Below, piece by piece: positions 11,337 through 36,200 of a stretch of 37,902 nt of DNA (position 1 is the first letter of the stretch; each line of letters starts with the position of its first letter). A program made the position numbers and the translations under genes. This stretch comes from Fibrobacteria bacterium (GTDB lineage Bacteria; Fibrobacterota; Fibrobacteria; UBA11236): positions 1 to 37,902 of the forward strand of contig JBGTHM010000011.1 in assembly GCA_041746255.1 (NCBI GenBank). Reading direction: 5' to 3'. The notes under the pieces are model-generated. The model had not been told where the DNA came from, made no database searches, and saw only the letters and a program-made list of their open reading frames with translations.

Positions 11337-11358
11337 GTGGTGAAATTTACTTCACCAC
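11337..11358. promoter_or_regulatory. palindromic operator copy 1 (GTGGTGAA-ATTTAC-TTCACCAC)
   Basis: Perfect 8-bp inverted repeat with a 6-bp spacer, upstream of the lyase cassette and overlapping the GH20 stop codon. Confidence 0.7.
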
Positions 11359-13208
11359 CATTTGATGGTATTGCGGCTGGCCAGTGCGGAATAGTGGAGC
11401 ATGTACTCTGGCCACACGGAGGGGTGGTAATCGGGATTGCGGGATTGGTGGAACATGGAATAATGTTTGAACTCAAATTCCTCAAGGCGGGGTAAGGCAC
11501 CACTCAGATGCTCCCCCACGATGTGAGCGAGGTAATCCAGCCTGGCTGCCACGGCGCCCATCCTGCCCTCGATGACTTCTAATCCGAACGGGCTGCGTTC
11601 CTTCAGCCAGTATTCACGGTAAAGCTTGCGCGTTTTGGCCAGTTTCCGCGACGCGGAAGCGATTTCTTCCAATTGCCGCTTCATGGCTTTTTTATCCTTT
11701 TTCCGATATGCGGCGACGAGGTTTCGACGTAAATCGCTTTTCACGGAGAGGAAATCGCAGAAACTTTCCGCAAAACGGAACAAGGGTTGAAAGGGGCTTT
11801 GGGCACGGCTATGCACGGCCATTTCCTTGGCGAGCTCCCGGTAGAATCCTGCGGCGGGACGTACCTTGGACGCGCCGCTGAAAAGACCTTGCGCCGGATC
11901 CTCATAGAAAAAGCATTTCCCCACGTTGTAGGGGAGTAGGGATTCCACCTTGTAGCCTGCCGTATCGATTTTCTCGACCGACCGAACGGCGTCGTAATCG
12001 AATTGAAAAACGGCAGCGAACTTTCGTTTTGCATGAGACAACACTTCGCTCACTTCCGTGCATTGCGCCAAAAAATAGGTGTGTGCAGGCAGGTTATAGT
12101 CGAAAAAACATTCGTGGCCGTCGTCGCCCCAATGCGTGTTGAGGGCGGACCGGACCCCGTTCCGCTTGCCCGATTCGAGCAAAGTGCTGATATTGGATTC
12201 GGCCTTATAATAGGCCGGGAAGAAACGAGACCAGCACCAGACTCCGGGAGATACCATAGGATCATACCCCATGTTTTTGAAATCAGCGAGATCCCGGCTG
12301 TATTTTTCGACATCGCAATATGCGTACTCCCAGTAGTTCATGGCGACGTCCTTGGGTAACCTACGCGCCTCCTCTCCCTGCATACGCGCCTCGCAGGTGG
12401 TGCCCAAAACGATATCGCCCCACATGATGGGTTTAAGCCCCTTCTTTCGGCAAATTTCCGTCACCTTGCGGACATGATCCACGTAAAGCTTGCGGGGATT
12501 GATTCCCTCCATTTCTTTGAACGCCAGGCCCCGGCCCAAACCGAAAGTTTCGTCCATCCCGACATGGATAAGATCCGTGTCATAGGGCGCCCTGGCGGCG
12601 TCGATGGTTTTTTCGATGAAATCGTACAAGCCATCGGCGTACACGTTGTAGACGGCATCGTTATCCTTGAGCGGAGTATAGTGGGGATACTTGAGAATGT
12701 GCTCCATATGCCCCAGGGTCTGGATGCAGGGAAACAGGGTCACTCCAAAAATTCTGCCGTATTTCACCAGATCCCGAATTTCCGCGGAGGAATAACGACC
12801 GCGGGCGTATCCAAAAAGCGGCTCACCCGGTACCGTGAAGGTGTCTTCGGTATAGAGGCAAAACCGGTTTAACCCCATCAACGCCAGTTTGGCGATTCTC
12901 TCCTTAAGGAAATCGGTCCGTACCACCGCGTTGCGGCTCACATCCAACATAATGCCGCGAAACCGATAGGGCGGAATTTTTGATTGACGAGCCGCGAGCC
13001 CATAAGTCATCAGCTCTCCCAAGGCCATGACTAGATCGTCGGTATCGGAATGGGTGATGAGAATTTCATCCTTCGCGAGGGAGATGGAATAACCTTCGTT
13101 CCCTCCGCGTTTCCATCGGCAAATCGTTCCGCTCCTTAATGAGAAGGAATCCGGAAACAGACGGGTCAATTCGCGGCCGAGCGGGCATTCGGTAAGTTTG
13201 AGTTTCAT
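11352..13208 (-). CDS. GH20 beta-N-acetylhexosaminidase, no signal peptide
   Basis: RGIMLDVSR, LYTED, PCIQTLGHME, catalytic IHVGMDET, MWGD, THWGDDG. Starts 1 nt after the upstream stop. Confidence 0.9.
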   Translation of the reverse strand: MKLKLTECPLGRELTRLFPDSFSLRSGTICRWKRGGNEGYSISLAKDEILITHSDTDDLVMALGELMTYGLAARQSKIPPYRFRGIMLDVSRNAVVRTDFLKERIAKLALMGLNRFCLYTEDTFTVPGEPLFGYARGRYSSAEIRDLVKYGRIFGVTLFPCIQTLGHMEHILKYPHYTPLKDNDAVYNVYADGLYDFIEKTIDAARAPYDTDLIHVGMDETFGLGRGLAFKEMEGINPRKLYVDHVRKVTEICRKKGLKPIMWGDIVLGTTCEARMQGEEARRLPKDVAMNYWEYAYCDVEKYSRDLADFKNMGYDPMVSPGVWCWSRFFPAYYKAESNISTLLESGKRNGVRSALNTHWGDDGHECFFDYNLPAHTYFLAQCTEVSEVLSHAKRKFAAVFQFDYDAVRSVEKIDTAGYKVESLLPYNVGKCFFYEDPAQGLFSGASKVRPAAGFYRELAKEMAVHSRAQSPFQPLFRFAESFCDFLSVKSDLRRNLVAAYRKKDKKAMKRQLEEIASASRKLAKTRKLYREYWLKERSPFGLEVIEGRMGAVAARLDYLAHIVGEHLSGALPRLEEFEFKHYSMFHQSRNPDYHPSVWPEYMLHYSALASRNTIKWW

Positions 13209-13209
13209 A

Positions 13210-15300
13210 TTAAAAGGTTACCGTCAGAAACAGACTGGACAGGTTTTGGGAAAACCGCGTTCCGGTTACGGATTCGTCTAAGTCGAGTACGCCATATTCC
13301 GCGGTCACATAGGCGCCGTGGGTAAGCTTAATTTCCAGCCCCACGGACCATTGGGATTGAACCAGGTCGAGTTCATCGAAGGTGCGGGAGCCTGCGTCCC
13401 GGGCGGTTTCCCGATAAGGATTCGAAGCGATTTGTTGGTACCCGGCCGATAGGATCAGGTTATTCGAAACGCCGACCTGAACGCCGGCATTTACCATGGC
13501 GGATTGGAAATCCTGTTGGGAGACGGATATTCCCTTGTCCGTAAAAGCGGGTTGGTTGCGTCCTTCCCGAATATAGCTGCCGGAAAGCGCCAGAGGTCGG
13601 GAAAGTTTCAAAAATTCTCCGGCCTGGACGCTTAGGCCGCCGCCCAGACGCCCGTAGGTGGCGATGCTCGTGATCAAGGTATCCATGTCCCGGCCTTCCA
13701 GTTCTTGCAAACCGGCATACAGTCCGCGCACCTCGATTTTGCTTTCTAAAAACGAAGCTTCCAAATCCAAGGTCAAGCCGGAGCGGTTCGGGGTGGCAGG
13801 ACCGTAGGGAAGCAGCAATTGGACATGCGGATCCAGGGCTCCCGCCAGAGATTCCCTTTCCAATTTAGTGAGAGTCGAGCGGGTGTAGGAATTTTTGAAG
13901 GTGGGAGCCCGGTACCAATTGTTGGTGCCGTTATACTGGTACGCGGCTCCCTGGCCCCAGAATTCCGAGGTATTGATATTTGTGATGGGATCCACGTTGT
14001 ACACATGGTGATACAGGGCATCGAAGGTGCTGTAGCCGCCTATGCCCTCGACACCATTTTTGGAATTAAGGACACGCCCGCCTATGAAGGCGGGGGATTG
14101 GGCAAGGTCATTGACGAAGTCATTTCCATTTCTGAGAAAACCCACCTTGAGGCCGACAGCGAAAAGCGATTCACCCGACGTATATCCGGCTTCGAGTCCG
14201 GCATTTAAAGCATTTCCATCCAGAGCTTGCAACTCTATCAGCTTGGGGCCGGTGAGAGGCCGGGAAATGGGGGTCCACATGCCCGATTGCGGGTTAAGAG
14301 TGGAGTCGGGGTAGTATCCCAAGGTATCGAGACCTTCCCGGCTCCGGCGATAGTTGGAAAAAGCGACTTCCAGGCCGAGTTTCAGGGTCAGATTCCGGCT
14401 TGCGAGCAAATGTTCACCATCAAAATTTAAATTAATCGCGTTTACCAAAACATTTTCATACAGGACTTGAGGAAGTACCCCTTTTGATGAGGTAAAATGG
14501 ACGTTACTTCGGGCCCGACTGCTTCCGATATCGTCCACGGCCCGGACATGAGTACCTCCGATTTCGAGCGCTTCGAAAGCCCGCAACTTGAGGAAGGTTC
14601 CCCCCATGAATTTTTCCGTGGGTCCGGTGTTGAAAAGCCACCCTAAGCCTACCCCGGGATCGGCGCTTCGCAATCTGCCTCCGGTAAGGCCTGCTTCGAA
14701 CCCCAGGACTTCGCCCAGGCCTTGGCGGTATACGGCGTTCAAGCCCTGGATGGGACGGCGGTTATCGGCCAGGAACCATTCGTCCATGGCGTTTTGGCGA
14801 CGGCGGGCGAATATTTCCGGTTCGTACAAGAGTTCCGGTTCGGGAGAGTAAATGGTAAGGGGTGAGTATTTTTGCAATACATCGCCGATGGCGAATTCGA
14901 CCTTTCCATCAATAATAGATCCACCGTAGTCGAACCAACGGGTGCTAATGGGATTGGGACCTTCCGGGTAATGATTTTGCCAATCCTGGTGCACGCGAAA
15001 ATACACTCGTCCGCGCGTGTGGGCGCTCGGTCTCGCAATCAAGCCGATATCGGCCTGGGTGAATGCCGCGTTCTCGCCGACGGGGTGTTCGGGGTTAGCG
15101 CTTTCGCCGGAAAGCGCGGAGCGAAGGAATTCAGACTTGGCCTTGCCCGTGAGGCTGACGCCGATCTCCTCATCCTCCAGTTTGCGGAGGGTATCCTGGG
15201 ATATTCCCGGAATCGGGTGGGACGGCTGCGACCATGCTCCCATGGTGAGGGCCAATAATACGATGGCCGTCGCGCCCGCCATCCTATGCTGCTTAAACAC
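13210..15300 (-). CDS. putative outer-membrane beta-barrel protein (paralog 3)
   Basis: Signal peptide, alternating amphipathic strands, terminal Phe (LFLTVTF). Full-length similarity to the upstream gene. Confidence 0.7.
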   Translation of the reverse strand: MFKQHRMAGATAIVLLALTMGAWSQPSHPIPGISQDTLRKLEDEEIGVSLTGKAKSEFLRSALSGESANPEHPVGENAAFTQADIGLIARPSAHTRGRVYFRVHQDWQNHYPEGPNPISTRWFDYGGSIIDGKVEFAIGDVLQKYSPLTIYSPEPELLYEPEIFARRRQNAMDEWFLADNRRPIQGLNAVYRQGLGEVLGFEAGLTGGRLRSADPGVGLGWLFNTGPTEKFMGGTFLKLRAFEALEIGGTHVRAVDDIGSSRARSNVHFTSSKGVLPQVLYENVLVNAINLNFDGEHLLASRNLTLKLGLEVAFSNYRRSREGLDTLGYYPDSTLNPQSGMWTPISRPLTGPKLIELQALDGNALNAGLEAGYTSGESLFAVGLKVGFLRNGNDFVNDLAQSPAFIGGRVLNSKNGVEGIGGYSTFDALYHHVYNVDPITNINTSEFWGQGAAYQYNGTNNWYRAPTFKNSYTRSTLTKLERESLAGALDPHVQLLLPYGPATPNRSGLTLDLEASFLESKIEVRGLYAGLQELEGRDMDTLITSIATYGRLGGGLSVQAGEFLKLSRPLALSGSYIREGRNQPAFTDKGISVSQQDFQSAMVNAGVQVGVSNNLILSAGYQQIASNPYRETARDAGSRTFDELDLVQSQWSVGLEIKLTHGAYVTAEYGVLDLDESVTGTRFSQNLSSLFLTVTF

Positions 15301-15318
15301 CGGTATATCCCTTTCTGC

Positions 15319-17397
15319 CTAGAACTTTACGTTGATGACCAACTGGGTCAACAACTGCGAAAAGTCCGTCCGGCGATTCTTGGCCGGATCCGCATTTGTT
15401 TCCGCTCCGGTTTGGGCGCTGCCCAGATGAGTGGTAGTCCGTTCCACGTCGATCATGCCTCCCGAGACTACCAAGTAGGCGTTTTCGCCTAAAGCATATT
15501 CCAATCCCCCGCGGTAATGCCTCTGGGTTTCAGCCCTGGAATATTGATGAACGACTTGTTGGGCCGGGACGGAGGTTTCCTGGTTCCGCAGGGTGGATTC
15601 CAGGGTCGCTTGCTGTACACCTCCCAGCAAAGCCCATTTGCGGAAAAACCGGTAATAGCATCCCGCCATCAAAAAATCAGCGGTCACGTCCGGCGACCCC
15701 AGGTCGGTTCCGATGCTACCGCGCGTGGATTGGTTTCGCGCGTAACTGGCGGAAACATCCAAGGGCAGGTTCAATCCCAAAGATTTATCCAATTCCAACT
15801 TCAAGCCTGCGCCGATTTGGGTGAAGGAAGCGAGAGTCGGTATGCCGTCAATCGGATTTCCTTCGATTTCCTCCAGCTTCACTGCATCCATGGAGGCATG
15901 CAAGGTGCTGGCCCAGTGGCCGCGAATCCGAGCCTTGAAGCCGGCCCGGTCAGGAGTCGCCAATCCGAAGGGAAGGGCGAGTTGCAAGACCGGATCGAGA
16001 TGAACGCGGGATAAATCTTCGGGCGAGAGTACGGCCCGGTTATACGAGGTTTTGGTGAATGGGGCATGCTGGTTCGAGGCCGTCCTGCGTGAAGGACTGA
16101 ATTTGTATACACCGTTGTTCAGGGCATCCAGAGTGGAATAAAGTTGGCTGGTAGCGAAATCGTTTTCGGTATTCAGAACGCGCTCGCCGATAAAGGTGGG
16201 GCTTTGGGCCATGGGATTGAGAAAGGACGCGTCGTTGCGGAGATAATGAGCCGTTAGGAATATCCCGTAAGCTCCATCCCGTGGTTGGTAACCGGCGCCC
16301 AGCTCCAGATTGAGGGCGGTGCCGTCCTTTCCGGGAGCCGTCGCCTCGATCTCGACATTCCTGGGAATTCCATCCACACTTTCTTTTTTGAATCGCCAGG
16401 CATAGCGGTTAAATTCGCCAGAAGTTGCGAACTCGCCCAGGATCTCCAATGTTACCTCGGAAACTCCCAGGAACCCGGCGATATCCGCACCTCCATGTCC
16501 GCCGAATATCCGTAAATCCCGGGCGATGACCGAATCCATCCCATTCAGGGAACGACCGTCATGAACGCCGTCGGGATAGACAGAATTATAAACCACGGGT
16601 CCATAGGGAATGAGTTCATAACTGTCCCTGTCGTCGAAAATCGATAGGAAGGAGCCGCCCAACAGGAGGTTGTCCCGCACCAGGATTTGCGAGTTCAAGG
16701 CCAAAAAGAAGCGATCCATGTCGGACCGGGAAAGGCCATACCCATGGCGTCCGTCCGGGTCCAGGAACTCGGCCCTGCGCAAACGCGATCCGATGGCGTC
16801 GGCGCGGAATTCGCTGACGGGTAAGTCGAAGCGTTTGGCCATGTTGAAGTTCAGACCTTGGAGCACCCGGTTGTTGCCGCCCAGAAACTGTTCCTCCATC
16901 AATTCCGCGCGCGGGCGGGAGAATATGAGGGGTTCATAAATCAGGTCGAGCTCCGGAGCCCAGAGGGTCAGGGGCGTGTATTTCTGCTTGAAATCGCCGG
17001 CATTGAAGCCGAGGGTATTCGCCAGGTTACCGTCCACACTGAGCCAGCGGGAGGCGAGAATGCGGCTGCGGGTGGAAAAAAAGGTTTGCCAATCCTGATA
17101 AAACCGGAATTGCGCACGCGCGCCAAGGAAATCGTAAGGGCGGTAATGCATGTCCAAATCGAAGGAGGTGAACTGGGTAGTCTCGTTGGCGTAATTGGTG
17201 TCTATTCGGGCCGATCCGGACAGGCCGGAGTTCAGGTATTCGGCATTGATTTCGCCGCCGATCTCGATCCCGTTCTTGGAAAGCACGTTTTCATATGCGT
17301 CCTCCAGGCGGTTTGGCAAGGGGAAGGCGTCGCCTGGAAAGGCGAGTTGTCCAACGAGAATCACTAGTGCCGTAACTGTGATTTTATTCAAAACCAT
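15319..17397 (-). CDS. putative outer-membrane beta-barrel protein (paralog 2)
   Basis: Signal peptide from the ATG at 17397, which overlaps the upstream gene. Amphipathic strands and terminal Phe (LVINVKF). Confidence 0.7.
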   Translation of the reverse strand: MVLNKITVTALVILVGQLAFPGDAFPLPNRLEDAYENVLSKNGIEIGGEINAEYLNSGLSGSARIDTNYANETTQFTSFDLDMHYRPYDFLGARAQFRFYQDWQTFFSTRSRILASRWLSVDGNLANTLGFNAGDFKQKYTPLTLWAPELDLIYEPLIFSRPRAELMEEQFLGGNNRVLQGLNFNMAKRFDLPVSEFRADAIGSRLRRAEFLDPDGRHGYGLSRSDMDRFFLALNSQILVRDNLLLGGSFLSIFDDRDSYELIPYGPVVYNSVYPDGVHDGRSLNGMDSVIARDLRIFGGHGGADIAGFLGVSEVTLEILGEFATSGEFNRYAWRFKKESVDGIPRNVEIEATAPGKDGTALNLELGAGYQPRDGAYGIFLTAHYLRNDASFLNPMAQSPTFIGERVLNTENDFATSQLYSTLDALNNGVYKFSPSRRTASNQHAPFTKTSYNRAVLSPEDLSRVHLDPVLQLALPFGLATPDRAGFKARIRGHWASTLHASMDAVKLEEIEGNPIDGIPTLASFTQIGAGLKLELDKSLGLNLPLDVSASYARNQSTRGSIGTDLGSPDVTADFLMAGCYYRFFRKWALLGGVQQATLESTLRNQETSVPAQQVVHQYSRAETQRHYRGGLEYALGENAYLVVSGGMIDVERTTTHLGSAQTGAETNADPAKNRRTDFSQLLTQLVINVKF

Positions 17398-19781: not shown

Positions 19782-20632
19782 TTGAAATCCTCATTGGTGA
19801 TGGCATAACCCGAACCGCCGACCAGCGAGCCTTCCGGCCCTTTTTTCAAAATCGTCACGTTATCCATCCATATTTTGAAAGATTTGTGCCGTTCCTTGTC
19901 GATATCGAAGGTGAAGCAGGAAACCTGCTTCCAATTGAAGGTGTTGAAAATGCGGGCGTTCACTTCCTCGCTCCAATAACTGCCTCGGGTTCCGAGCGCT
20001 CTCAAGGGAAACCTTACCCGTTTCCACTCTTCTTTGGATACTTTGGCAAAGCTACGGGAGTTGACCCACAGTTGCAATGCGCGTCCGGCCGGATTGTTTC
20101 CGTTATCGAGCAGCCCTACGCTGAACACCTCCTGGCCTTCGGCGCCCTTGACCCATAATTCCACCACGCCGGTTTCCAGGTAGGGGGACAGGTCCACCGG
20201 AGCGGGTGAACAAACGGCTCCGCCGGAATAGGCGTCGGCCTTGAGGATAACTTCCAGCGAAAACCGTCCGTCTTTGGCCTGAACGTCGGTCATGGCCGGT
20301 CTGGGATAACCGGAACCATCGGGATACATCCAGACCTGCGCGCCGGGAACCATGTTATCGTCCACGAATGCGATGGCCAGATTGGGATCCCGGTTCTTAC
20401 GCTTGAGCTGGAAATTGAGGACGGATGAGGAACGGTTTCGAATCCCTTGGAAATTCGTAGTCCCTGAAATCGCTCGCTTTGCGCGTACGTGCATGGTCTC
20501 CAGGGAAAGCGTATCTTTGCTCTCTAGGAGCGCTTCAGTTTCCGAACCACCTATGGCGGTACCGCCAAATCCAAGCATGACCAATATGGGGCTTGCGTAT
20601 TGAAGGGCCAAAAAGGTTCGTGATGCCTTCAC
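19778..20632 (-). CDS. secreted non-catalytic carbohydrate-binding-domain protein (CBM30/CBM11-like beta-sandwich)
   Basis: Signal peptide. DLSPY…LELWVKG-x2-G-x-E-x-FSVGLLD, WKRVRFPL, FNWKQV, IWMDNV pattern of galactose-binding-like folds. Confidence 0.65.
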   Translation of the reverse strand: MKASRTFLALQYASPILVMLGFGGTAIGGSETEALLESKDTLSLETMHVRAKRAISGTTNFQGIRNRSSSVLNFQLKRKNRDPNLAIAFVDDNMVPGAQVWMYPDGSGYPRPAMTDVQAKDGRFSLEVILKADAYSGGAVCSPAPVDLSPYLETGVVELWVKGAEGQEVFSVGLLDNGNNPAGRALQLWVNSRSFAKVSKEEWKRVRFPLRALGTRGSYWSEEVNARIFNTFNWKQVSCFTFDIDKERHKSFKIWMDNVTILKKGPEGSLVGGSGYAITNEDFK

Positions 20633-20656
20633 TCGAAACTACCTACATCTTTATAG

Positions 20657-20693
20657 AAAATGAAAAGAGGGGAAGGTGGCCTTCTTGCCCCCC
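20657..20693 (-). terminator. putative intrinsic terminator inside the operon
   Basis: Minus strand reads GGGGGGCAAGAAGG-CCA-CCTTCCCCTC followed by TTTTCATTTT, just after the stop at 20710. Confidence 0.45.
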
Positions 20694-20709
20694 ATGGAAA
20701 TACTTGGAT

Positions 20710-21771: not shown

Positions 21772-21886
21772 CTTCCTTCTCCCATTTGTGAAAATATTGT
21801 CGATCGGGCGATAAGCCTATGCCGAATCGATTACTCACTAAACCTATGTTGGATGGAAGCAATTGTCCATGGACCGCAGTTTAAAA

Positions 21887-24552: not shown

Positions 24553-24566
24553 GCGGGTGCTCCTCC

Positions 24567-27259: not shown

Positions 27260-27261
27260 GT

Positions 27262-28224
27262 TTACTCCAGCTTGATCCGCGGATCGAGAATTGCATAGAT
27301 AACGTCCACCGCCAGGTTGACCAGCATGATGGCTGCGGCGAAGATGAGGGTGGAGGTTACCAGCATGGGATAATCCCGGAGTTGGGCCGCCGACACGAAC
27401 AGGGATCCCAGCCCGGGAATGCGGAAGATCTGCTCAACGAGCACACTGCCCAGCAGCATGAAGCTGAATTGGGGGCCCATCACCGTGACCAGGGGAATGA
27501 GCGAGTTGCGCAGCGCATGGGAGGCGATGACCTGGGATTCGCGCAAGCCCTTGGAATACGCCGTGCGGATGAAATCCTGCTCCAGCGTCTCAAGGATGCT
27601 TGAGCGGATGAATCTCGCCACGGTGGCGATGGGGGCCGCGCCGATGGCCAGGGACGGAAGGATATAATGGTTGCACTGTCCCCAGCCGGAGGTGGGGAGC
27701 ACGCCCAGCACCACGGCAAAAAGGACGATTAGGCCCACCGCAATGATAAACGAGGGGATGACCTGTCCGATCATGGACAGCCCCATCAGGGAATAATCCC
27801 ATACGGTGTTTTTCCGCAAGGCGGCGATCACCCCTAAGGGGATGCCGATGAGTATGGCCAGAATCAGACCGATAGCCACGACCTGAAGGGTCACACTGAA
27901 TTTTTCCCTGACCAATTGCTCGATGGGCACGTTGGGATTGACGAAAGAGGGGCCGAACTCGAAGGTGGCGGCGTTCTTCAGAAAAATTCCGATTTGCATA
28001 TAGATGGGCTTGTCCAGGGCATAGCGTTTCTGGAATTCCACCTCGTATTGTTTCTGCGCCTCCTTACCCTTGCTGTCCAAGGCCGCCATGGCTTCGCGCA
28101 CCTGCTGCATTTCCAAAAAATTGCCGGGGGCGGCGTGCATCAGATAAAAAGTGATGGCTACGACGGCCGCGAGGGAGATCGCGATGGAGACGATGCGCTT
28201 GGCGAAAAACTTGAGCAGATTCAT
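27262..28224 (-). CDS. oppB: Opp/Dpp-type ABC permease (OppB-like)
   Basis: LDKP, FIRTAYSKGL, HALRNSLIP, VEQIF-x-IPGLG, RDYP, LDPRI. Confidence 0.92.
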   Translation of the reverse strand: MNLLKFFAKRIVSIAISLAAVVAITFYLMHAAPGNFLEMQQVREAMAALDSKGKEAQKQYEVEFQKRYALDKPIYMQIGIFLKNAATFEFGPSFVNPNVPIEQLVREKFSVTLQVVAIGLILAILIGIPLGVIAALRKNTVWDYSLMGLSMIGQVIPSFIIAVGLIVLFAVVLGVLPTSGWGQCNHYILPSLAIGAAPIATVARFIRSSILETLEQDFIRTAYSKGLRESQVIASHALRNSLIPLVTVMGPQFSFMLLGSVLVEQIFRIPGLGSLFVSAAQLRDYPMLVTSTLIFAAAIMLVNLAVDVIYAILDPRIKLE

Positions 28225-28225
28225 G

Positions 28226-30280
28226 TTAGGAAGATCCCATTCGGCCTGCCCGGGAGAGATAGGCCTCTTTGTCCACCTCGATGTATTGCAAATTGAAGAG
28301 AACGTTCCACATTCCGAATTTGTTGATCGATTCCCCCTGGATGAAGGGGCGCCGCAAGTACACCAGCTTTTCCGAATAAATGGGAATGATCCAATTCTGC
28401 TTAAGGGAGAGCTGGATGAATTCGCGAATCAGGCGCGGTGCCTCGGCATCCTCCAGGGTCATCGTTTCCAGGTGCGCGAAAATCCGGTTCCCCTCGTAAT
28501 TCGCCCTGTTTTGAAAATAGGTGAGGAAGTTGAAATGGGCATCGAGGAGCAAATCCTTGGCGCTTTGCCACTTGGAGATTTTTTCCTCCCGGGTCGCGCC
28601 GTCATTCAAAGTCGCGACGATGCGATCGAATTGGGCAGAGTAGTCGAGTTCCAAAACCTTGCTGCGGTACACGGTATCCGGCTCCGCCTTCCGGATTTGG
28701 GCGAACCAGAGGGCGGCGGAATCGCGCAAGGATTGCAACTCCCGCCAATCTTCCGGCTTGTCCCCCTTGTTCTCCTTTTTGATGTTGATGCGTTCCACGG
28801 TGAGCCGCTTGCGGAGTTCCTTCAGAGGGTAGTCGAAATTCATCCAGAACCAGGAGTGGTCAGCCAGACGGAGCATCATGATGGGATCCTTCCACAACAC
28901 CTTGCCCGGAAAGAGAGTGAGGCCTGGGCGGGTGTAGCGGACATCGTCGATATAGCCACCTCCCCACATATAGGTGGAGAGCATGCCCTCCTCCATGTTT
29001 TCGATGAGCACGTTGAGGCCGATGGCCTTCAGATGGGATTGGATGGCTTCCGCGACGGTTCCCAGGCCCTTGATGTCGGTGGAGGGTGGCGTGAAGATAT
29101 AAATGGGCTCGCCCCGGTAGGACGAACGGGCCAAATAGCGTTTGGCGGCCTCCTTGTCCGGGTTCTCGGTCTTAATCCCCAGGTTGATCAGGGTATCTTC
29201 CATGGGTCCAAAGTTGGAGGTGGGCGTCACCCGTCCACCCATGATATTGTGGGCTATGTCTCCCTTGTCCAGAGCCATGGCGATGGCACGACGCAAATCG
29301 TCATCGTTCATCAACGGGTTTACGGTCCGGGCGATTTGGATGCCCGTGTATCCCATTTCCGGTGTCAGAACCACATGCTCATTCAGGTGTTTCGCTTTGG
29401 TGGCATAAGCGTAGTCGCCCAGCGTCTGCACGTGGGCGACGTCGATCTCGCCCGCTTCGTATTGCTGGATCTGTGCGCTTTGGGCCAGCATGTTCATCGA
29501 CTTCAAGACGAAGCGATCCACGTTGCCGCGCGGGCCGACGTAATACGGGTTAACAACCAATTCGAACTCGCCGTCCGGAACGAAGGTTTTCAGCACGTAG
29601 GGCCCGTTACCTACGAAATGCGTGGGCATCCACCAATTCTCGACTTCGCCGCGGGTCTGGGCGGCTTCGATGCTGGGCTTGTGCATGGGCAGCGCCGAAG
29701 CCAGCGCCAAAAAGCCCAGCAGGGCCTTGGGCTTGATCAGCCGGATTTCCAGGGTATGATCGTCCAGGGCCTTGAAACCCACGGAGTCGGCTGGAACGGT
29801 GCCGGCCTTATAATCCATGGCGCGGACTACCGAGGGGAAGAAGCTGGCCCAGGTCGGCGAAGGCAGTTCCGGGCTGCAGAAACGCGTCCAGCCATACACA
29901 AAATCATGGGCCGTCACGGGGTCCCCGTTCGACCACTGCTTGTCCCTGCGCAAGGCGATCGTCCAGGTCAGCTTGTCGAGGGAAAGGACCCAGGAATCTG
30001 CGATTTTGGGAACCACGTTGAGGTCACGGTCATATCCGAAAAGCCCCTCGAAGAGGGTGCCTTGCATAAGAACGGTCTGGGGGGCCCATACGTAGGGTTC
30101 GAGGCTTTGCGCTGGGTAGCTGGGCAGCCGGACAACGATTTCCCCTTCGCGCCCGCTGCCCGGAATTTTCGCGACCGCGGAGGCTCGCTGGGCGTCGGAG
30201 CAGAAAATGCAATGATAGAGCCCGTACCCTGCCAACGTAACCAGGGCCAGGGGCGCAACCACCCACTTAAGCAAACGCAC
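28226..30280 (-). CDS. oppA: family-5 solute-binding protein (OppA-like), probably oligosaccharide-binding
   Basis: LFEGL, WSNGDPVTAHDFVY, VGNGPY, RRAIAMALDK. N-terminal TM anchor. Likely GTG start at 30280, 1 nt after the upstream TAG (ORF track starts at 30313). Confidence 0.88.
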   Translation of the reverse strand: MRLLKWVVAPLALVTLAGYGLYHCIFCSDAQRASAVAKIPGSGREGEIVVRLPSYPAQSLEPYVWAPQTVLMQGTLFEGLFGYDRDLNVVPKIADSWVLSLDKLTWTIALRRDKQWSNGDPVTAHDFVYGWTRFCSPELPSPTWASFFPSVVRAMDYKAGTVPADSVGFKALDDHTLEIRLIKPKALLGFLALASALPMHKPSIEAAQTRGEVENWWMPTHFVGNGPYVLKTFVPDGEFELVVNPYYVGPRGNVDRFVLKSMNMLAQSAQIQQYEAGEIDVAHVQTLGDYAYATKAKHLNEHVVLTPEMGYTGIQIARTVNPLMNDDDLRRAIAMALDKGDIAHNIMGGRVTPTSNFGPMEDTLINLGIKTENPDKEAAKRYLARSSYRGEPIYIFTPPSTDIKGLGTVAEAIQSHLKAIGLNVLIENMEEGMLSTYMWGGGYIDDVRYTRPGLTLFPGKVLWKDPIMMLRLADHSWFWMNFDYPLKELRKRLTVERINIKKENKGDKPEDWRELQSLRDSAALWFAQIRKAEPDTVYRSKVLELDYSAQFDRIVATLNDGATREEKISKWQSAKDLLLDAHFNFLTYFQNRANYEGNRIFAHLETMTLEDAEAPRLIREFIQLSLKQNWIIPIYSEKLVYLRRPFIQGESINKFGMWNVLFNLQYIEVDKEAYLSRAGRMGSS

Positions 30281-30281
30281 T

Positions 30282-31604
30282 CTATTTGACCATGTCGCCC
30301 AGGTTGATTCCATCCAGGCGGATGTGATCTAACTGGAATTCGGATCCGCCCGTGCCTATGAAGCGGATGGAGCGGATCATGCCGCCCATTTCCTGCCATG
30401 ACTCCGGCTTTTTGATATACAGGGGGAGCTTGGCCGATAGGAATTGAGCATGGTGTTTTTCCGGCGCGTCCGGGAAAACCGAGGCGATTATGCGAAGGTT
30501 ATCGGGAGTTATGGAGACCAGTCCCCAGTCCGCGGTCAGGGCAACCGAATCCATGGCCACCACATGTAAGGGATATCCACCTTTGATTGGGTTTTGAATG
30601 AGTTCGATTACCAAGTTGCCGGTTCCGCGAGCAAAAAAACTGAGAGTGTCAAATGCGGATAGATTGTAATGGATATCGGAACCGCCTAGATTCAATTCAA
30701 CCGTGACAAAAGGATAGGGTTTATCGAGTCCAGCGCCGCCTTCCGTGTATAGGACCTTCAAGGCCTTGCCTCGCTCTCCTCCCTCATTCAATATGGCAGA
30801 GGAGAAATTAAGGGGGGCGGCATTCAAAGGCATGAGCAGCTTGGAGGAGCCACCGACGTATTCATCGCTGTAGGCGTCCCAATAGCCGCCGCCAAGTAGC
30901 GGGCCGATGCTGTTACGGTTGTCTCGATCTTCGAAATCATCTAATAAGACGAACTTGCGTGGTGTTGGAACAATTGTGTCTACTTGCGTCTCAAGTCTCC
31001 CGTCCAGTTCAACTTCGTCGGCGACGAAAAACACCTCGCTGCCATCAGCCTTAACGCTCCGAATCAGGACGGAATAATGCTGTTGCGGCACGGACTTGAG
31101 AGAAAACCCGCCCGTGGATTCGTCAACATCCGCGGAAAAAGGCGTTCCGGCAAGAAGCACTTGCTTGGAGGCGGCCAAAGAATCCATGATCACCCCATTG
31201 TAAGTTACCAGCGCACGCATGGAAATTTTTCCCCAGTACTCCTTATTCAGCCGTTGCTGCGAGACCTCACGGATTAGGAATCCGTTGCTTCCATCGCTTG
31301 CCATGATGCTTGCGACGGTTCCGGAATCAACGTTGAACTTGAATACGCCTGAATCATTCGTGACAGCACTGTCAATCACGATGCTGTTGCCGTTTATAAT
31401 ATTGGTCACCCATTCCTTCTCATTCAAAAGGTAAACCTTTGTGTTCGAAGCCACCACGCCGTCCGGACGCATCACCATTGCGGTGATTCCGTTTGTGGTC
31501 TCGATGGTCCCACCCGCATGTGGGCCGGCGCCGCTTTCGAAGCAACCCCAGAAGATAACGGCCACACTGGAAATGGCAACTGATATGAGCCACCTGCAAC
31601 TCAT
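30282..31604 (-). CDS. lipoprotein with two beta-sandwich stalk domains and a CBM11/CIA30-like domain
   Basis: Lipobox IFWG-C21, then GGTIETTNG. C-terminal LLDDFED…GGYW-x3-SD…GGSS…FFARGTG…W domain. ATGA overlap with the TIGR02147 gene. Confidence 0.75.
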   Translation of the reverse strand: MSCRWLISVAISSVAVIFWGCFESGAGPHAGGTIETTNGITAMVMRPDGVVASNTKVYLLNEKEWVTNIINGNSIVIDSAVTNDSGVFKFNVDSGTVASIMASDGSNGFLIREVSQQRLNKEYWGKISMRALVTYNGVIMDSLAASKQVLLAGTPFSADVDESTGGFSLKSVPQQHYSVLIRSVKADGSEVFFVADEVELDGRLETQVDTIVPTPRKFVLLDDFEDRDNRNSIGPLLGGGYWDAYSDEYVGGSSKLLMPLNAAPLNFSSAILNEGGERGKALKVLYTEGGAGLDKPYPFVTVELNLGGSDIHYNLSAFDTLSFFARGTGNLVIELIQNPIKGGYPLHVVAMDSVALTADWGLVSITPDNLRIIASVFPDAPEKHHAQFLSAKLPLYIKKPESWQEMGGMIRSIRFIGTGGSEFQLDHIRLDGINLGDMVK

Positions 31605-32437
31605 TTCAAATTCCTCCGTCTGGCGGTAAGCGGGAAAAGCTGTAAATTCATTTGATACACCCGGTCCGGATTGCTGTAGCTATTGGCTAGTTTCTTGAGC
31701 GACTCGCGACACTCGCCAACCAATTCCCGGATCTCCGGAATGGCGGCTTCAGGAATGTTTAAGGTCAAGGTCGATATGTCCCGTTCTTCTTTTTGAAATC
31801 GCTCAAGTGATCCCTCCGCCAGGCGAATCATCTCCCTTTGGTATTCGGTGATGGCCAAGGATTGCCATTCCTTGCCTGTAGTCAGATTGAGTCCGGCGGC
31901 ATAGAATTCCCCGTCCTCGGTCCTTTTAATGAGACCGAGATCGTCCAACAATTTCAAAGCAGCCTTGGCCTCTTTTGCGGTTATGGCAGGTGCCAATTGA
32001 GTCGCGATATCCTTGGCTTCTCCTTTGAAGGATTCCCCGGAGAGCAGAGACCAAACCGCCGAGTAATACCATTTTTGGAAGAATTCGTATTGATTTTTCC
32101 CAAGCTTGTCGGATTTTGCCTTGTTTAAGGAAAGCATCTTCTCGAAATAGATTTTGCTGTCCTTTTCCGTCTTCGCTTTACTGAAGTGGACCAGGCAATT
32201 GAAAAAAGCGGCTTCCTGATCGTTGAATCCACAAACCTTGGTGAATTTATCAATCCGGTTGTCGGCGATATGGAGATTACCTTGCAGCACCTTAATCAGG
32301 AAGCTGGAATCCATACCCACTCTATTCCCAATGTACCTATAGGAAATAAAGGCGCTGGTTTTTTTCTGTTGGATATAAAAATCTCTCAGAAATGCGCGGT
32401 AATCCAAATAATCGTATACGCTAATCACTAACTTCAA
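31601..32437 (-). CDS. TIGR02147/DUF4423-family protein with N-terminal HTH-like region
   Basis: YxDYRxFLRDFY…SYR…G…L-x-KVLQG, WYYSAV, ERDISTLTL, VYQMNLQLFPL are characteristic of the family. TTG start. Confidence 0.9.
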   Translation of the reverse strand: MKLVISVYDYLDYRAFLRDFYIQQKKTSAFISYRYIGNRVGMDSSFLIKVLQGNLHIADNRIDKFTKVCGFNDQEAAFFNCLVHFSKAKTEKDSKIYFEKMLSLNKAKSDKLGKNQYEFFQKWYYSAVWSLLSGESFKGEAKDIATQLAPAITAKEAKAALKLLDDLGLIKRTEDGEFYAAGLNLTTGKEWQSLAITEYQREMIRLAEGSLERFQKEERDISTLTLNIPEAAIPEIRELVGECRESLKKLANSYSNPDRVYQMNLQLFPLTARRRNLK

Positions 32438-32477
32438 TTTATGCCTGAACCGTTTATTTGTCCACCAAGGTTATTAG

Positions 32478-32623
32478 GAATGTGATGAAGAATAGTTCAC
32501 CAAAATACCCCAAACATCCCGAATGTGAGCCAAATTATCCAAAGTTAAGACGCTATGTGCTCTGGCGCCGAGGGACATTTTTCATCGGTAGCTAATTATT
32601 CCAGCGGTGTTTTCACCAATTCC
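32478..32623. repeat. diverged direct repeat, copy A (operator plus relic of the nagB 3' end)
   Basis: Aligns with 36086-36200 apart from a ~30-bp extra segment. Minus strand encodes ELVKTPLE*. Confidence 0.85.
32482..32503. promoter_or_regulatory. palindromic operator copy 3 (GTGATGAA-GAATAG-TTCACCAA)
   Basis: About 45 bp upstream of the TIGR02147 start codon. Confidence 0.75.
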
Positions 32624-32627
32624 GACC

Positions 32628-35600
32628 TCAATTTCTGATAAGGCCGAATTTTTTCTTTTCCTCGAACCTGCCCGGTTGCGCTCCCGTCCTCAGGTCCCGG
32701 CCGGTGACGAAGGTGGCCTTGAGAATATACGCCCCGGTGCCGACCCGGGTTCCCCTGCTGGTCCATCCCGTCCAGACGATAGGCACTTCATAGCTGGCCC
32801 CCAACGCCGTGCTGGTGTATTTCACCTGGGAGAGATCCTGCTCGTTTATTTTACCGGTACCCGAGGCGATAAACTCGCCCACGTTGCTGAATATTTTAAA
32901 ATCGTAATCCAACGGTCCCGGCGTGAAAATCTGGAAAACCGGTCCCACGAATATTCCGCCCTGTTGGGGCTGACAGCTCTCGCATTTGCCGTCCGAATGT
33001 CCCGGAAGGGGCGCTCCATCCTTATTGATGGGAATGAACAACGCATTCTGGCGATGGGTGATGGGAGCTCCCTGGGAAGCTGTTTCCCGGGTTCCGTTGG
33101 GGAAAAGGATCACCAGCTTGACCGGCTTGGGTTGGGGCGGTAGGCCGTCCAGCAAGCGAAAGAGCTTGATGGACGGCGAATTGCCATTGGCGTCCCTGGT
33201 TACGCGATTGGTGTTGATGGCTACCGAATCCCCAACAATGGGAAAGACGGTGGAGTTTTCATCGATGAAGAATACCACCCGTCTGGTATCCATCAGCTCG
33301 TGGCGCAAGATCACCACGGCGCCGGCAGGGAGTTCCGAGCCGTCCCTTTTGAATACCAGCGGCAGCGAGGCCTCGGACGAGAGGGTCACTGGTTCCGAGT
33401 AGGTGATGATGACGCGTTTCAAGGGAATGTCCGCATCGGGTTCCTTAATTTCCGCGCCGAGAATGATGGGTGGTATTGAATCGTCCACGGCAAAGGCGCC
33501 GTCGTTCAAGGGGAAATTATCCTGCCGGAAGGTTTGACCGGAGAAATCCCGATTGCGCAAGGACGTAATACCCTGATCGAAAGGCGAAACGAAGGTGACG
33601 ATGGCGCGGTTCCCGGACAGGGTGATTTCTCCGGCGGAGGCAGTGCGGACATATTCCTTCCCGTCCTCACCGGTGATCCTGAACGTCAATTTCTCCGGAG
33701 CCGAGGGAGGAACCTTTTCGAATTGGACGATGGCTTTGTCGATGTGTCCATCGCCGTTCTCATCCAGATACCAGGCCTTTGAGATGCCGATGGTAGGCAG
33801 GTTGGTGGGCGTGGCCACCTGCGGGGGCACGGGGGGATCGCCGCAAATGGCGGTGGAATGGGCGGTGAAATCAAGTTGCTGCACCGTGGAGTTTCCGCAG
33901 CCATCCGTGGAACGCACCCAAAGCGCGCCCTTCTCCCCTCTCTTGGGGTAACCGGGACGTTTACAGGAAACGTGGAATTCGTATTTGTTGCCGCCAAGGT
34001 GGGTGGCGGCGTTCCAGACGACCCAGTTTGTGTCCATGCTCCAATCCGCTTTGATTCCAGGTTCATTGTCCTTGGTGTCGAAGGTCACCTTGAACCCGGG
34101 ATCGATGATGGGCGCTATGGCCGCGCCTTTCACGGGGGAAGTGAGGGTGAGATTCGGATAGATTTCGTCCTTGAGCTTGCCCGCGCAGGTGCGGGCGTTC
34201 TTGCTGTTGCGGTCTACCATCAGGCGGAAATCGGATTGGACGGGTACCAGGCGTCTCCGTGAGGGCAGGTAGTTTTTCGCGACGCGCAGAATCGTCAGCC
34301 AGTCATAGCGAAAGCTTATGGCCTCCTTGCCGTTGGTGGAGGGCGCCTTGCCTTTGAGCCGGTTGAAGGCGCATTCCAGATCCGTCTGTAAAGCCTTCCT
34401 CTGTTCCACATCGAGGTCGAAGTGTAAGAGCAGTCCACCATCCGCTTGGGTCTCGGGTGTGCCGGGAGAGGCGGTTCCCCCATAGAAGAAACGCCGGATC
34501 TCGGTCCAGGTAATGTCCGCGTCATAGATTATGTTACCGCCTCCGCAGGTGGAGGAGGATTTCGACGCGTCTACCTGCGCGTCCAGCAACCTGAACACAT
34601 TGGTCCGGTAATCACCGTTGCCCGCTGGAAACCTGAGAGACGCCTGGGGATCGTTTTTCAGATTAGGATCCTTGAGGGCGGACTCGAAACCGGAATTGGG
34701 GCCGAGATTGTAGCCGGGGATGAGAGCGGCGAGGCCGACTCGCGGATCTTTGCCGTTGACTATGGCATCGGCGAAGCAAAGGTCGGTGGAATGCTCCAGG
34801 CCGTCATAAAGCCAATACCAAACCAGGGCGGAAGAAAGGACGGAGTTGGCGATTTGTGGAGAGTTGGGGCCGGTGCCGCCGGCTCCGGGCGCGGGTGTGT
34901 ATCCGGGCGTACGCATGTAGAAGGCGGAGGCGGCGGTCCATTGACCATTGTCTCCGGAACAGGAGGCTGCAGTGGTCACGTCCCGAAACCTACCCATGCA
35001 GGGGCCGTATTTGGGGTAGAACTGTGGATAGGATTGCATGGTGCGGGCGAAGGTGGTGGCTTCGATTTCCCATGGGCTGAACGCGCCGTCGTCGTCTCGG
35101 TTGAAACTCGCCCATTCCGAAATGGAACCCAGGTTTTCCCTGCCATGCTCGACGAAGCCGAACATGGTTTCCTTGCCGGCAATGGCGGCCAGAAATTGCA
35201 TGTCCACATTCAGGATTTCCTGGGCCATGGACAGGGCCATCATGTACTGCGGGCCGCCCAAGGAACGGGGATCCCATTTGACCTGCATTCCGTTCAACGT
35301 GACGGGAGTGGAGGGAATGGCCGCCTGGATTTGCGTCTGACCGAAAAAGGTGGATACCAGACCACCGAAGCTCTCTCCTCCATTTGTTCCTATGGAATCG
35401 ACAATACACTGGGTTCCATAAAAGGAGGTTGGCGCTTGCGCGGGGATGGCGGCACATTTCAAGGGTTCCGCGTCCGTATAAGGCGGCGCCTCGCTGCATG
35501 AGCCGGTTTTGACCAAAGTCTGCGGGTCGAATAAGGTCCCGTTCTGCCCGGCGGCCAGAGTGCCGGTATAATCCACGGCGGCGGCTCTACAGACGCCCGC

Positions 35601-35912
35601 CTGCATTTGTTGCTGGTCGTTGGGAGGAATCTTCTGCGTATACTCGACGGGGGCAGCTCCCTCCCGGGTCAGTCCCTGCATCCAGGTCGAATAACCAGCG
35701 AAGTCTTGGGTACGGAATTTCCAGCCCTCGACCAATTGCGGAGACGCCGTCTCATTGCAGGTGTGCACCCGTGGATATTGGGTGCCCGGCCCGACCAGAT
35801 TGTCGTTGCCCTGAAACGTGACGGAAACCTGGGATTGGCCGATCCCAAAAAAGGAAAGACAAACCGCCCGAATCAGGAGCCTTTTTCGGAAATGTGACAT
35901 TTTTATCATCAT
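32628..35912 (-). CDS. large secreted protein: Cys-rich/lysozyme-like N-terminal region, Ig-like domain, Fibrobacter-type C-terminal region
   Basis: Signal peptide after ATG 35912/35909/35900. AIAGKET and GYNLG motifs, Pro-rich linker, YLDENGDGHID, and FlgD-Ig-like end IFSNVGEFI…WTG…G-x-RVGTGAYI. Confidence 0.75.
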   Translation of the reverse strand: MMIKMSHFRKRLLIRAVCLSFFGIGQSQVSVTFQGNDNLVGPGTQYPRVHTCNETASPQLVEGWKFRTQDFAGYSTWMQGLTREGAAPVEYTQKIPPNDQQQMQAGVCRAAAVDYTGTLAAGQNGTLFDPQTLVKTGSCSEAPPYTDAEPLKCAAIPAQAPTSFYGTQCIVDSIGTNGGESFGGLVSTFFGQTQIQAAIPSTPVTLNGMQVKWDPRSLGGPQYMMALSMAQEILNVDMQFLAAIAGKETMFGFVEHGRENLGSISEWASFNRDDDGAFSPWEIEATTFARTMQSYPQFYPKYGPCMGRFRDVTTAASCSGDNGQWTAASAFYMRTPGYTPAPGAGGTGPNSPQIANSVLSSALVWYWLYDGLEHSTDLCFADAIVNGKDPRVGLAALIPGYNLGPNSGFESALKDPNLKNDPQASLRFPAGNGDYRTNVFRLLDAQVDASKSSSTCGGGNIIYDADITWTEIRRFFYGGTASPGTPETQADGGLLLHFDLDVEQRKALQTDLECAFNRLKGKAPSTNGKEAISFRYDWLTILRVAKNYLPSRRRLVPVQSDFRLMVDRNSKNARTCAGKLKDEIYPNLTLTSPVKGAAIAPIIDPGFKVTFDTKDNEPGIKADWSMDTNWVVWNAATHLGGNKYEFHVSCKRPGYPKRGEKGALWVRSTDGCGNSTVQQLDFTAHSTAICGDPPVPPQVATPTNLPTIGISKAWYLDENGDGHIDKAIVQFEKVPPSAPEKLTFRITGEDGKEYVRTASAGEITLSGNRAIVTFVSPFDQGITSLRNRDFSGQTFRQDNFPLNDGAFAVDDSIPPIILGAEIKEPDADIPLKRVIITYSEPVTLSSEASLPLVFKRDGSELPAGAVVILRHELMDTRRVVFFIDENSTVFPIVGDSVAINTNRVTRDANGNSPSIKLFRLLDGLPPQPKPVKLVILFPNGTRETASQGAPITHRQNALFIPINKDGAPLPGHSDGKCESCQPQQGGIFVGPVFQIFTPGPLDYDFKIFSNVGEFIASGTGKINEQDLSQVKYTSTALGASYEVPIVWTGWTSRGTRVGTGAYILKATFVTGRDLRTGAQPGRFEEKKKFGLIRN

Positions 35913-36020
35913 GTAATTCTTCGATAGGTGGATTTCGATTTGGTTCATGCGCAATACCTTATCCTGTACTGCCAAAACTAGGGTCGAAGGGTGAGTTTGT
36001 CCACCGGTGCCCACGCGAAA

Positions 36021-36042
36021 GTGATGAACTCCTTATCATCAG
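36021..36042. promoter_or_regulatory. palindromic operator copy 4 (GTGATGAA-CTCCTT-ATCATCAG)
   Basis: Same arms and spacer as the other copies, upstream of the large secreted gene. Confidence 0.6.
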
Positions 36043-36085
36043 GCTAGCCGATAAAGACGAGGTTTTTGGGGAGGATTAGGGTTAT

Positions 36086-36200
36086 GAATGTGATGAAGTG
36101 GCGTTCACCAAAATACCGACAATTAGGACGTCTTGTGATCTGGCGTCGTGGCCAGTTTTCATCGGTAGCTACTTATTCCAAAGGTGATTTCACCAGCTCC
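36086..36200. repeat. diverged direct repeat, copy B (operator plus nagB 3' end)
   Basis: Shares GAATGTGATGAAG, GTTCACCAAAATACC and TTTTCATCGGTAGCTA-TTATTCCA with 32478-32623. Confidence 0.85.
36090..36111. promoter_or_regulatory. palindromic operator copy 5 (GTGATGAA-GTGGCG-TTCACCAA)
   Basis: Same arms and spacer as the other copies. Confidence 0.75.

Follow-up and report, generated by a model that had tools for sequence, protein, structure and literature searches.

Chitin and N-acetylglucosamine (GlcNAc) utilisation is under the control of NagC (a ROK protein), DasR and NagR (both of the GntR/HutC type) and ChiS of Vibrio, and the polysaccharide utilisation loci of Bacteroidota have local regulators, namely SusR, hybrid two-component systems and extracytoplasmic function (ECF) sigma/anti-sigma pairs. 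At the promoter, class I activators bind at characteristic upstream positions, such as -61.5 for CRP at lac and near -72.5 at other promoters. In this work, we analyzed a stretch of 37,902 nucleotides (nt) of a Fibrobacteria bacterium (contig JBGTHM010000011.1 of assembly GCA_041746255.1), hereafter the window, which is the entire contig C11 of a genome of 4,591,299 bases in 130 contigs. Our subjects are a 22-bp palindrome recurring in this window and a 275-residue protein of the TIGR02147/DUF4423 family encoded beside one of its copies. Taken together, our results indicate that the palindrome is probably the site of a homodimer of this protein, which would act as an activator 17 nt upstream of its target promoters, regulate its own gene and govern a chitin regulon. 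There is nothing but the classical in a palindromic site, in a local regulator that controls its own gene or in an activator bound upstream, while the regulator family itself is not studied: a full-text literature search, with supplements outside its scope, did not find TIGR02147, and in the excerpts that it returned DUF4423 has a single mention, in an unrelated Bdellovibrio proteome paper. Among the matches listed for chitin, regulators and promoters in Fibrobacteres, likewise in excerpt, nothing dealt with regulation in the phylum.

A pattern search of the window located GTGRTGAA-N6-WTCAYCA at 11337, 21887, 32482, 36021 and 36090, which are the five copies that an earlier reading of this stretch, made from its letters alone (the sequence-only reading), had picked out. 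The copies at 11337 and 21887 match on the reverse strand too, for seven matches in total, and 100 dinucleotide-preserving shuffles of the window gave none (chance expectation 0). Throughout the 4.59-Mb genome, the exact pattern occurs at six places, the five in C11 plus C9:930. We further scored the 16 arm positions against GTGRTGAA/TTCAYCAC, calling intergenic positions from a crude map of open reading frames (ORFs) in a genome that is 90% coding, with the following outcome:

Score 16/16: 2 sites genome-wide
Score 15/16: 4 sites genome-wide
Score 14/16: 4 sites genome-wide
Score of at least 14/16: 10 sites, 8 of them intergenic
Score 13/16: 52 sites, 5 of them intergenic, which is background
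Score 12/16: 437 sites, 38 of them intergenic

As the intergenic share collapses below 14/16, the signal ends sharply at that score. Elsewhere in the genome the motif is practically absent. Apart from the five sites, the window has no site of 13/16 or more and a lone 12/16 match (17830), within coding DNA. All five window copies are intergenic, site 1 touching the stop codon of the gene for the glycoside hydrolase family 20 (GH20) enzyme. Seven of the ten top-scoring sites were accepted, the five in the window together with C9:929 and C22:4214; six of the seven precede chitin-related or envelope genes, and the remaining one, site 5, is an additional copy upstream of site 4. Two further matches of at least 14/16 sit in coding DNA, outside the accepted set, and C26:7646 (14/16) was dismissed, as it forms a small hairpin of its own with a T run behind it and lies beside type VI secretion system genes. 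The window sites and the promoters predicted from them are as follows:

11337-11358, minus strand: site 1, sense GTGGTGAA-gtaaat-TTCACCAC, 16/16, overlapping the GH20 stop codon at 11352-11354
11291-11319, minus strand: predicted promoter of the lyase cassette, TGGCCA (11314-11319), 17 nt, TAGGTT (11291-11296), beginning 17 nt past site 1 and assigned from the constant geometry
21887-21908, minus strand: site 2, sense GTGGTGAA-aaatga-TTCATCAC, 16/16
21841-21869, minus strand: predicted promoter of the six-gene operon, TGGACA (21864-21869), 17 nt, TAGGTT (21841-21846)
32482-32503, minus strand: site 3, the proposed autoregulatory site, sense TTGGTGAA-ctattc-TTCATCAC, 15/16
32436-32464, minus strand: predicted promoter of the regulator gene, TGGACA (32459-32464), 17 nt, TAAATT (32436-32441)
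36021-36042, minus strand: site 4, promoter-proximal for the large gene, sense CTGATGAT-aaggag-TTCATCAC, 14/16
35975-36003, minus strand: predicted promoter of the large gene, TGGACA (35998-36003), 17 nt, TAGTTT (35975-35980)
36090-36111, minus strand: site 5, distal for the large gene and a duplicate of site 3, sense TTGGTGAA-cgccac-TTCATCAC, 15/16

The sequence-only reading had placed each copy upstream of a transcription unit; four of the copies have a predicted promoter each, whereas site 5 lacks one and is found farther upstream than site 4, with 69 bp between the two centres. Its derivation of sites 3 and 5 from one duplication was borne out: about 170 bp around them align with 75% column identity and one 30-bp indel, and the alignment extends into the 3' end of the upstream gene, so that by this comparison the two sites are products of a single duplication.

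The palindromes are embedded in a common promoter plan. In 20 sense-oriented promoters from four genomes, the order is palindrome, 17 nt, TGGACA, 17 nt and TA[GA][GAT]TT; the 17 nt from the palindrome to the predicted -35-like hexamer are kept in 20/20, the second hexamer conforms in 20/20, TGGACA is exact in 16/20, and the sequence between the elements of the module is not conserved. Read in the opposite direction or from a distal site, as in five cases that include the reading towards the GH18 gene at 22126, the module is missing. Hexamers of the TAnnTT class (TAGTTT, TAAATT, CTAGTT, CTAAGT) are among those most enriched upstream of genes (4-6 fold), and TTGACA-N17-TAnnTT occurs 11 times in the genome, nine of them intergenic, a placement by which the second hexamer fits a local -10 type and TGGACA would be an off-consensus -35 box. 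The predicted -10 hexamer of the regulator gene ends 7 nt before its GTG start, and in 13 of 14 orthologue loci the corresponding hexamer ends 6-12 nt ahead of the start codon; a -10 element so near the start suggests a leaderless or nearly leaderless messenger RNA (mRNA), which anchors the predicted start point. From the palindrome to the -10 hexamer, these autoregulatory promoters measure 39-40 nt in five cases and 48-50 nt in nine distant ones, and relative to the predicted starts the palindrome centres would fall at -63.5 (five promoters) and at about -72.5 (nine promoters). Judged by these distances, the site in the distant orthologue loci is one helical turn farther from the promoter.

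The fixed phase, the fixed polarity, the off-consensus -35 box and the lack of overlap with the core promoter in combination fit an activator in contact with RNA polymerase, which is not to say that they prove it. We therefore infer that the palindrome is an activator site, placed upstream, of a local regulator that controls its own gene, rather than a promoter-overlapping operator. The palindrome had been called an operator in the sequence-only reading; as a regulator site it finds support, but with its constant distance of about 64 bp to the predicted start it is better described as an activator site. The same protein might nevertheless work from the same sites as a repressor, the palindrome then being a true operator at which it blocks an upstream promoter element or from which it loops to weaker half-sites close to the promoter until released by a chitin-derived ligand. 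The XRE, MarR and ArsR relatives in the fold lists (see below) are mostly repressors, and looping would be possible between the two sites of the large gene, 69 bp apart, or with half-sites (TTGGTGAA and GATGAA) upstream of site 3. However, no site overlaps the -35 box, the -10 box or the start point in 20/20 promoters, the orientation is locked so that the invariant arm TTCATCAC always faces the promoter, and the spacing, constant at 17 nt and in distant orthologues longer by one helical turn, is what characterises a protein in contact with RNA polymerase. We thus consider repression unlikely.

The motif itself is polar. Its sense-strand consensus is nTGGTGAA-N6-TTCATCAC-TTYC, a 22-bp imperfect palindrome whose promoter-proximal arm TTCATCAC, followed by TTYC, is invariant in 20/21 sites; the distal arm varies at its first base, position 1 being G in 10/21, whereas its partner position 22 is C in 21/21. 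The spacer and the sequence between the elements vary among the sites of the four genomes. A CRP-like motif was also tried and rejected, the GTGA/TCAC cores lying 14 bp apart and not 6. Inverted repeats of this size can equally be RNA hairpins (terminators or processing sites) or small mobile, REP-like (repetitive extragenic palindromic) repeats, and sites 1, 3 and 5 do lie just downstream of co-directional genes; moreover, on the sense strand the usual G of position 4 and the T that faces it at position 19 would make a G-U pair. Yet none of the five sites (0/5) was called terminator-like and no T run follows any of them, sites 2, C9:929 and C22:4214 have no co-directional gene upstream, the arm variation at positions 1 and 22 is non-compensatory, the flanks are not conserved beyond the promoter elements, and the genome has seven copies and not hundreds. 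A hairpin or repeat is in our view highly improbable.

We searched 40 related genomes for the palindrome at ≤1 mismatch, with the reversed pattern as control (one of them, G021, is unpublished and adds only a zero). G009 contains five sites, G013 four, G017 five and G030 three, the remaining genomes have 0 or 1, and the control gave 0-2 per genome. At least three sites were found only in these four genomes, and the same four alone hold an orthologue of the TIGR02147 protein with at least 55% identity. Mapping the window proteins around the sites showed that G009, G013 and G017 share a site upstream of the TIGR02147 operon, another upstream of the operon of the unknown 353-residue protein (unk353), and others at the orthologue of the large gene (53-55% identity) and at its 30-32% paralogue; the site after GH20 is found in G009 and G017. 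At orthologous promoters of related Fibrobacterota (G009, G013 and G017) the motif is therefore conserved. Co-occurrence in four close relatives could by itself reflect inheritance of the whole locus. We also fetched 80 loci with relatives of the TIGR02147 protein from public genomes, 16 of them at ≥50% identity. A site of ≥14/16 lies 75-88 bp upstream of the start codon in 13 of these 16 orthologue loci, and no site was present anywhere in the DNA of the 58 paralogue loci L023-L080 (33-49% identity). The question is settled by nine distant loci (L005-L010, L013, L020 and L021): there the palindrome still sits next to the TIGR02147 orthologue, while the other window proteins have zero tblastn matches and the downstream genes differ. 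Because only that neighbour persists in them, the regulator gene is the sole constant partner of the site. Chitinispirillaceae and Fibrobacter metagenome-assembled genomes are among the carriers of the pair. The only other genome of the same genus, G001, has no site at ≤1 mismatch and no close orthologue (best match 37%), so that regulator and sites were not found in the nearest relative searched.

Side by side with these sites stands a variant motif, GTGAGGAA-GTAAAT-KTCACCAN, next to orthologues of 51-56% identity, in which one arm is altered and the spacer retained (L116, that is G030:C40, at 4765, 9236 and 12200; L114, that is G003:C17, at 10400).

From the linkage described above, we infer that the TIGR02147 protein (31601-32428), given by the sequence-only reading only as a target, is the regulator; the single dimeric regulator which that reading had postulated is supported by the site-orthologue linkage (13/16 vs 0/58), by the distant loci and by the homodimer model presented below. 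Another possibility is that a different, unlinked factor binds the palindrome and that the TIGR02147 gene is merely one of its targets. Binding of the TIGR02147 protein to the palindrome is a prediction, the assignment of its helix-turn-helix (HTH) comes from middling structural scores, and genome G003 has a 51% orthologue with an adjacent 14/16 variant but zero sites at ≤1 mismatch. On the other hand, the site follows one orthologue group and is missing from the paralogue loci, the site-gene pair persists in distant lineages where all other neighbours changed, and the Pfam scan of 25 window ORFs revealed no other recognised DNA-binding regulator family or domain. These observations make an unlinked factor very unlikely.

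The proposed regulator belongs clearly to its family, matching NCBIfam TIGR02147 over residues 5-272 with 261 bits (cut-off 50) and PF14394 (DUF4423) with 121.8 bits (cut-off 30). This genome has 21 TIGR02147/DUF4423 copies above cut-off, and one relative has up to 49 protein matches. Its structure was modelled with AlphaFold2 (AF2) from an alignment of 47 orthologues, with a predicted local distance difference test score (pLDDT) of 79; a single-sequence model (pLDDT 42) was discarded. In this model, residues 7-90 resemble XRE-type HTH domains (3pxp, Z 8.7, root-mean-square deviation (rmsd) 3.2, 82 residues aligned; also HigA, DdrO and P22 c2), and residues 103-189 resemble winged-helix repressors (CzrA, Z 8.7, rmsd 4.0, 82 aligned; also SmtB, MarR and PadR). 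A sequence search of the PDB with a profile returned nothing below E 0.22. Modelling supports a homodimer, the predicted pair reaching an ipSAE of 0.62 vs 0.00 for the best of three controls; three runs share ≥95% of contacts, the partner pLDDT is ≥77, and the predicted interface comprises roughly residues 190-270 (the C-terminal 80), which are unstructured in the monomer model. In a calibration, the same mark was reached by 20 of 30 proteins solved as pairs and by 1 of 23 solved as single chains, counts that apply here only roughly because our own alignment was used. The HTH recognition helix, MDSS..IK.VLQG.LH, is found in 14/14 orthologues carrying the motif and differs in paralogue groups with other palindromes, each group keeping its own helix constant. 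As evidence for cognate binding this lends modest support and no more, because helix and relatedness are confounded.

In the mechanism that we propose, a homodimer of the locus-encoded TIGR02147/DUF4423 protein would occupy the 22-bp palindrome, and the target promoter would be of the sigma-A type with an off-consensus -35 box (TGGACA-N17-TAnnTT), 17 nt past the site. Centred at about -63.5, the dimer would most likely recruit RNA polymerase in class I style. With a site in front of its own gene and a predicted leaderless mRNA, the regulator would boost its own synthesis in a self-amplifying manner, and the inducing signal would probably be a chitin breakdown product.

Several observations weigh against this interpretation. 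First, three of the 16 orthologue loci have no good site within 100 bp: L004 has a decayed one (12/16), L014 none better than 10/16 and L018 a variant at -160. In addition, a generic sigma-70 scan calls only 32464-32436 of the four predicted window promoters, with counts at shuffle level, and the 20 promoters that define the geometry, coming from four genomes that are close kin, count as fewer than 20 independent cases. A weak -35 box does not account for the near-invariance of TGGACA; the hexamer could be the site of a second factor, and it is also a half-site of the palindrome of another paralogue group. Activation and repression are not separable by site position alone. Regarding the protein, fold Z values of 7.3-8.7 (VIA-align) are middling and in a range that can reflect a common arrangement, the best Foldseek hit in the PDB has E 0.028 with none at ≤0.001 (the weak rows being nearly all MarR, ArsR and CodY), and Pfam HTH models match few members of the alignment (HTH_31 3/47, HTH_3 1/47). 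Besides, the 14/16 threshold is not clean, because C26:7646 is a chance hairpin at that score.

The genes of the locus were assigned with the Pfam scan of the window ORFs and NCBIfam, and are arranged in four units and two neighbouring genes:

6570-11210, minus strand: lyase cassette (unit 1), three lyase-like genes specific to this genome
9183-11210, 8112-9155 and 6570-7871, minus strand: members of the lyase cassette, respectively alginate-lyase-like/He_PIG/PA14, PL14 (polysaccharide lyase family 14) and alginate-lyase-like
11352-21771, minus strand: six-gene operon (unit 2), an unknown protein of 353 amino acids (aa), a protein with carbohydrate-binding module family 30 (CBM30), an unknown 797-aa protein, two 700-aa proteins with an outer-membrane protein (OMP) beta-barrel tail and the GH20 hexosaminidase
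22126-23274, plus strand: GH18 chitinase, divergent from site 2, an adjacency retained in G013 and G017
23416-32428, minus strand: nine-gene operon (unit 3), with the TIGR02147 protein, a lipoprotein, a family-5 binding protein, two permeases, two ATPases and a GNAT protein
31601-32428, minus strand: TIGR02147/DUF4423 protein of 275 aa, GTG start at 32428, the proposed regulator
30282-31604, minus strand: lipoprotein of 440 aa, with a lipobox (...FWGC), the tag GGTIETTNG just behind it and a start that overlaps the regulator stop by 4 nt
23416-30313, minus strand: importer block, a family-5 solute-binding protein, two permeases and two ATPases (an ATP-binding cassette (ABC) importer of the Opp/Dpp type) and GNAT, tightly spaced after the regulator and lipoprotein genes
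32628-35948, minus strand: large protein of 1106 aa (unit 4), no Pfam family, probable ATG start at 35948
36173-37852, minus strand: NagB-like/PIG-L-like gene, upstream of the large gene

The large gene probably starts at ATG 35948, because the listed GTG at 36014 is upstream of its promoter. The order of the six-gene operon is identical in G009 and partial in G013 and G017 in the stretches fetched. In this genome, the regulon would consist of seven sites at six promoters: the regulator-lipoprotein-importer-GNAT operon, the envelope/GH20 operon, the lyase cassette, the 1106-aa gene with its two sites, and two promoters elsewhere, at C9:929, preceding a second GH18 chitinase, and at C22:4214, preceding a 1114-aa paralogue of the large protein with a chitobiase C-terminal domain. 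The sequence-only reading had proposed a regulon over the whole locus, which is supported at the window promoters but falls short in extent, as two more promoters lie outside, on C9 and C22. The gene content points to chitin and GlcNAc use, and the chitin/GlcNAc genes foreseen as targets are indeed there, namely GH18, GH20 and chitobiase C-terminal domain proteins, the family-5 ABC importer and the NagB/PIG-L-like gene. As for site 2, which had been assigned to both a divergent outer-membrane operon and the chitinase, the operon has a facing module; whether the GH18 gene at 22126, on the other side of the same intergenic region, belongs to the regulon is uncertain, because the promoter module does not face it. 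By eye, the plus strand between site 2 and the GH18 start contains GGTGAA-N12-TTCATCA (window 22008-22035), with both half-sites and a 12-nt, not 6-nt, spacer.

Some rearrangements around the sites were also observed. The NagB/PIG-L-like gene and the regulator gene appear to have been separated by an insertion made up of the large gene and its promoter; this block is flanked by the duplication of about 170 bp (window 32482-32640 and 36090-36230), in which the palindrome and the end of the gene upstream are included. The two separated genes are direct neighbours in G009 and G013, where a single site, the regulator's, lies between them, with the NagB/PIG-L-like gene directly upstream of it. After GH20, the site-plus-promoter module is kept and the cargo swapped, being lyase-like here vs GH18-like in G009 (L100:11773) and G017 (L104:8368). 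The lipoprotein partner of an orthologue in L010 (10825-12390) bears the same GGTIETTNG tag. In their C-terminal domain these partners are unlike one another, with Laminin_G_3/DUF2341 in L013 and L020, a two-component-regulator propeller in L010 and no Pfam family detected in the lipoprotein of the window.

Other members of the TIGR02147 family have palindromes too. A perfect 7+7 palindrome occurs upstream in 20/77 loci vs 354/4800 random windows, and in other genomes each paralogue group has a perfect palindrome peculiar to it, at 83-138 bp from the start codon on the upstream side: TGGACAT-N2-ATGTCCA (or GTGGAC-N6-GTCCAC in L031) in seven loci (L014, L030, L031, L033, L044, L047 and L057) and ATGTTCC-N8-GGAACAT in three (L062, L071 and L078). 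In this genome, GTGGAC-N6-GTCCAC and ATGTTCC-N8-GGAACAT gave no convincing sites. TGGACA is the -35-like box of the present regulon as well, and in several of its promoters it forms TCCATGGA(C)A. The palindromes upstream of 20 other paralogues in this genome are mostly single and about as numerous as expected by chance; the type on contig C32 alone recurs. This palindrome, YTGTTCCC-N4-GGGAACAR, lies upstream of the C32 TIGR02147 paralogue and recurs elsewhere in the genome at about six positions, of which four are intergenic (in G000: C32:50061, C32:56061, C5:141345, C5:142110, C41:774 and C98:856), and it may represent a second regulon of the family.

The locus provides the unstudied TIGR02147/DUF4423 family with a 22-bp site and a promoter geometry, both of them defined, and with a regulon that points to chitin, and thereby makes its function testable; what it adds above all is a regulon with a readable function. 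That regulon also flags candidate parts of an anaerobic chitin-degrading apparatus, namely the 1106-aa, 797-aa and 353-aa proteins and the two 700-aa proteins with a beta-barrel tail. It is tempting to speculate that TIGR02147/DUF4423 proteins are the main regulators of glycan loci in Fibrobacterota, a new family of dimeric activators with two DNA-binding domains in which each paralogue has its own palindrome at a fixed upstream position, is autoregulated from a leaderless mRNA and is translationally coupled to a surface lipoprotein with the GGTIETTNG tag and a variable, sensor-like glycan-binding domain, although so broad a generalisation is at this stage a doubtful one. If it were true, regulator and lipoprotein would constitute an undescribed trans-envelope sensing pair, in the role that SusR, hybrid two-component systems and ECF pairs have in Bacteroidota, and the present locus would be the first in the family whose substrate, chitin, can be read.

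Compared with the chitin/GlcNAc regulators NagC, DasR, NagR and ChiS, the predicted role is the same, namely joint control of chitinases, a hexosaminidase, an oligosaccharide ABC importer and enzymes of the glucosamine 6-phosphate (GlcN-6-P) type. The Pfam scan of the 25 window ORFs detected no ROK, GntR/UTRA or sensor-kinase family, and the motif is not known to match the NagC, DasR and NagR boxes, as the sequence-only reading had also held. With the regulators of Bacteroidota polysaccharide utilisation loci, the present protein shares a location inside the glycan locus that it appears to control and an abundance of paralogues per genome, each tied to its own locus; the families are unrelated, however, since here a soluble 275-aa protein has no kinase, receiver or sigma domain in the Pfam scan.

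At the level of the promoter, the resemblance is to class I sites such as those of CRP: a dimer-sized palindrome of 22 bp that would be centred at about -63.5 or about -72.5 from the predicted start, on a constant helical face and ahead of an off-consensus -35 box. The CRP site is TGTGA-N6-TCACA, whereas the arms here are of 8 bp with centres 14 bp apart; CRP has a Crp/Fnr-type domain, whereas only DUF4423 was detected by the Pfam scan in the protein proposed here, for which activation is predicted. Finally, the C proteins of restriction-modification systems and other small XRE autoregulators are alike in having an XRE-type HTH, in binding as a dimer to a palindrome upstream of their own gene, and in leaderless or short-leader mRNA and autoregulation, all of which are predicted here. 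In contrast to C-boxes, which abut or overlap the -35 box, 17 nt separate the palindrome from that box in this regulon, and unlike C proteins, the TIGR02147 protein is predicted to have a winged helix in addition to the HTH and, at its C-terminus, a large domain for dimerisation, and to control a catabolic regulon of several operons.

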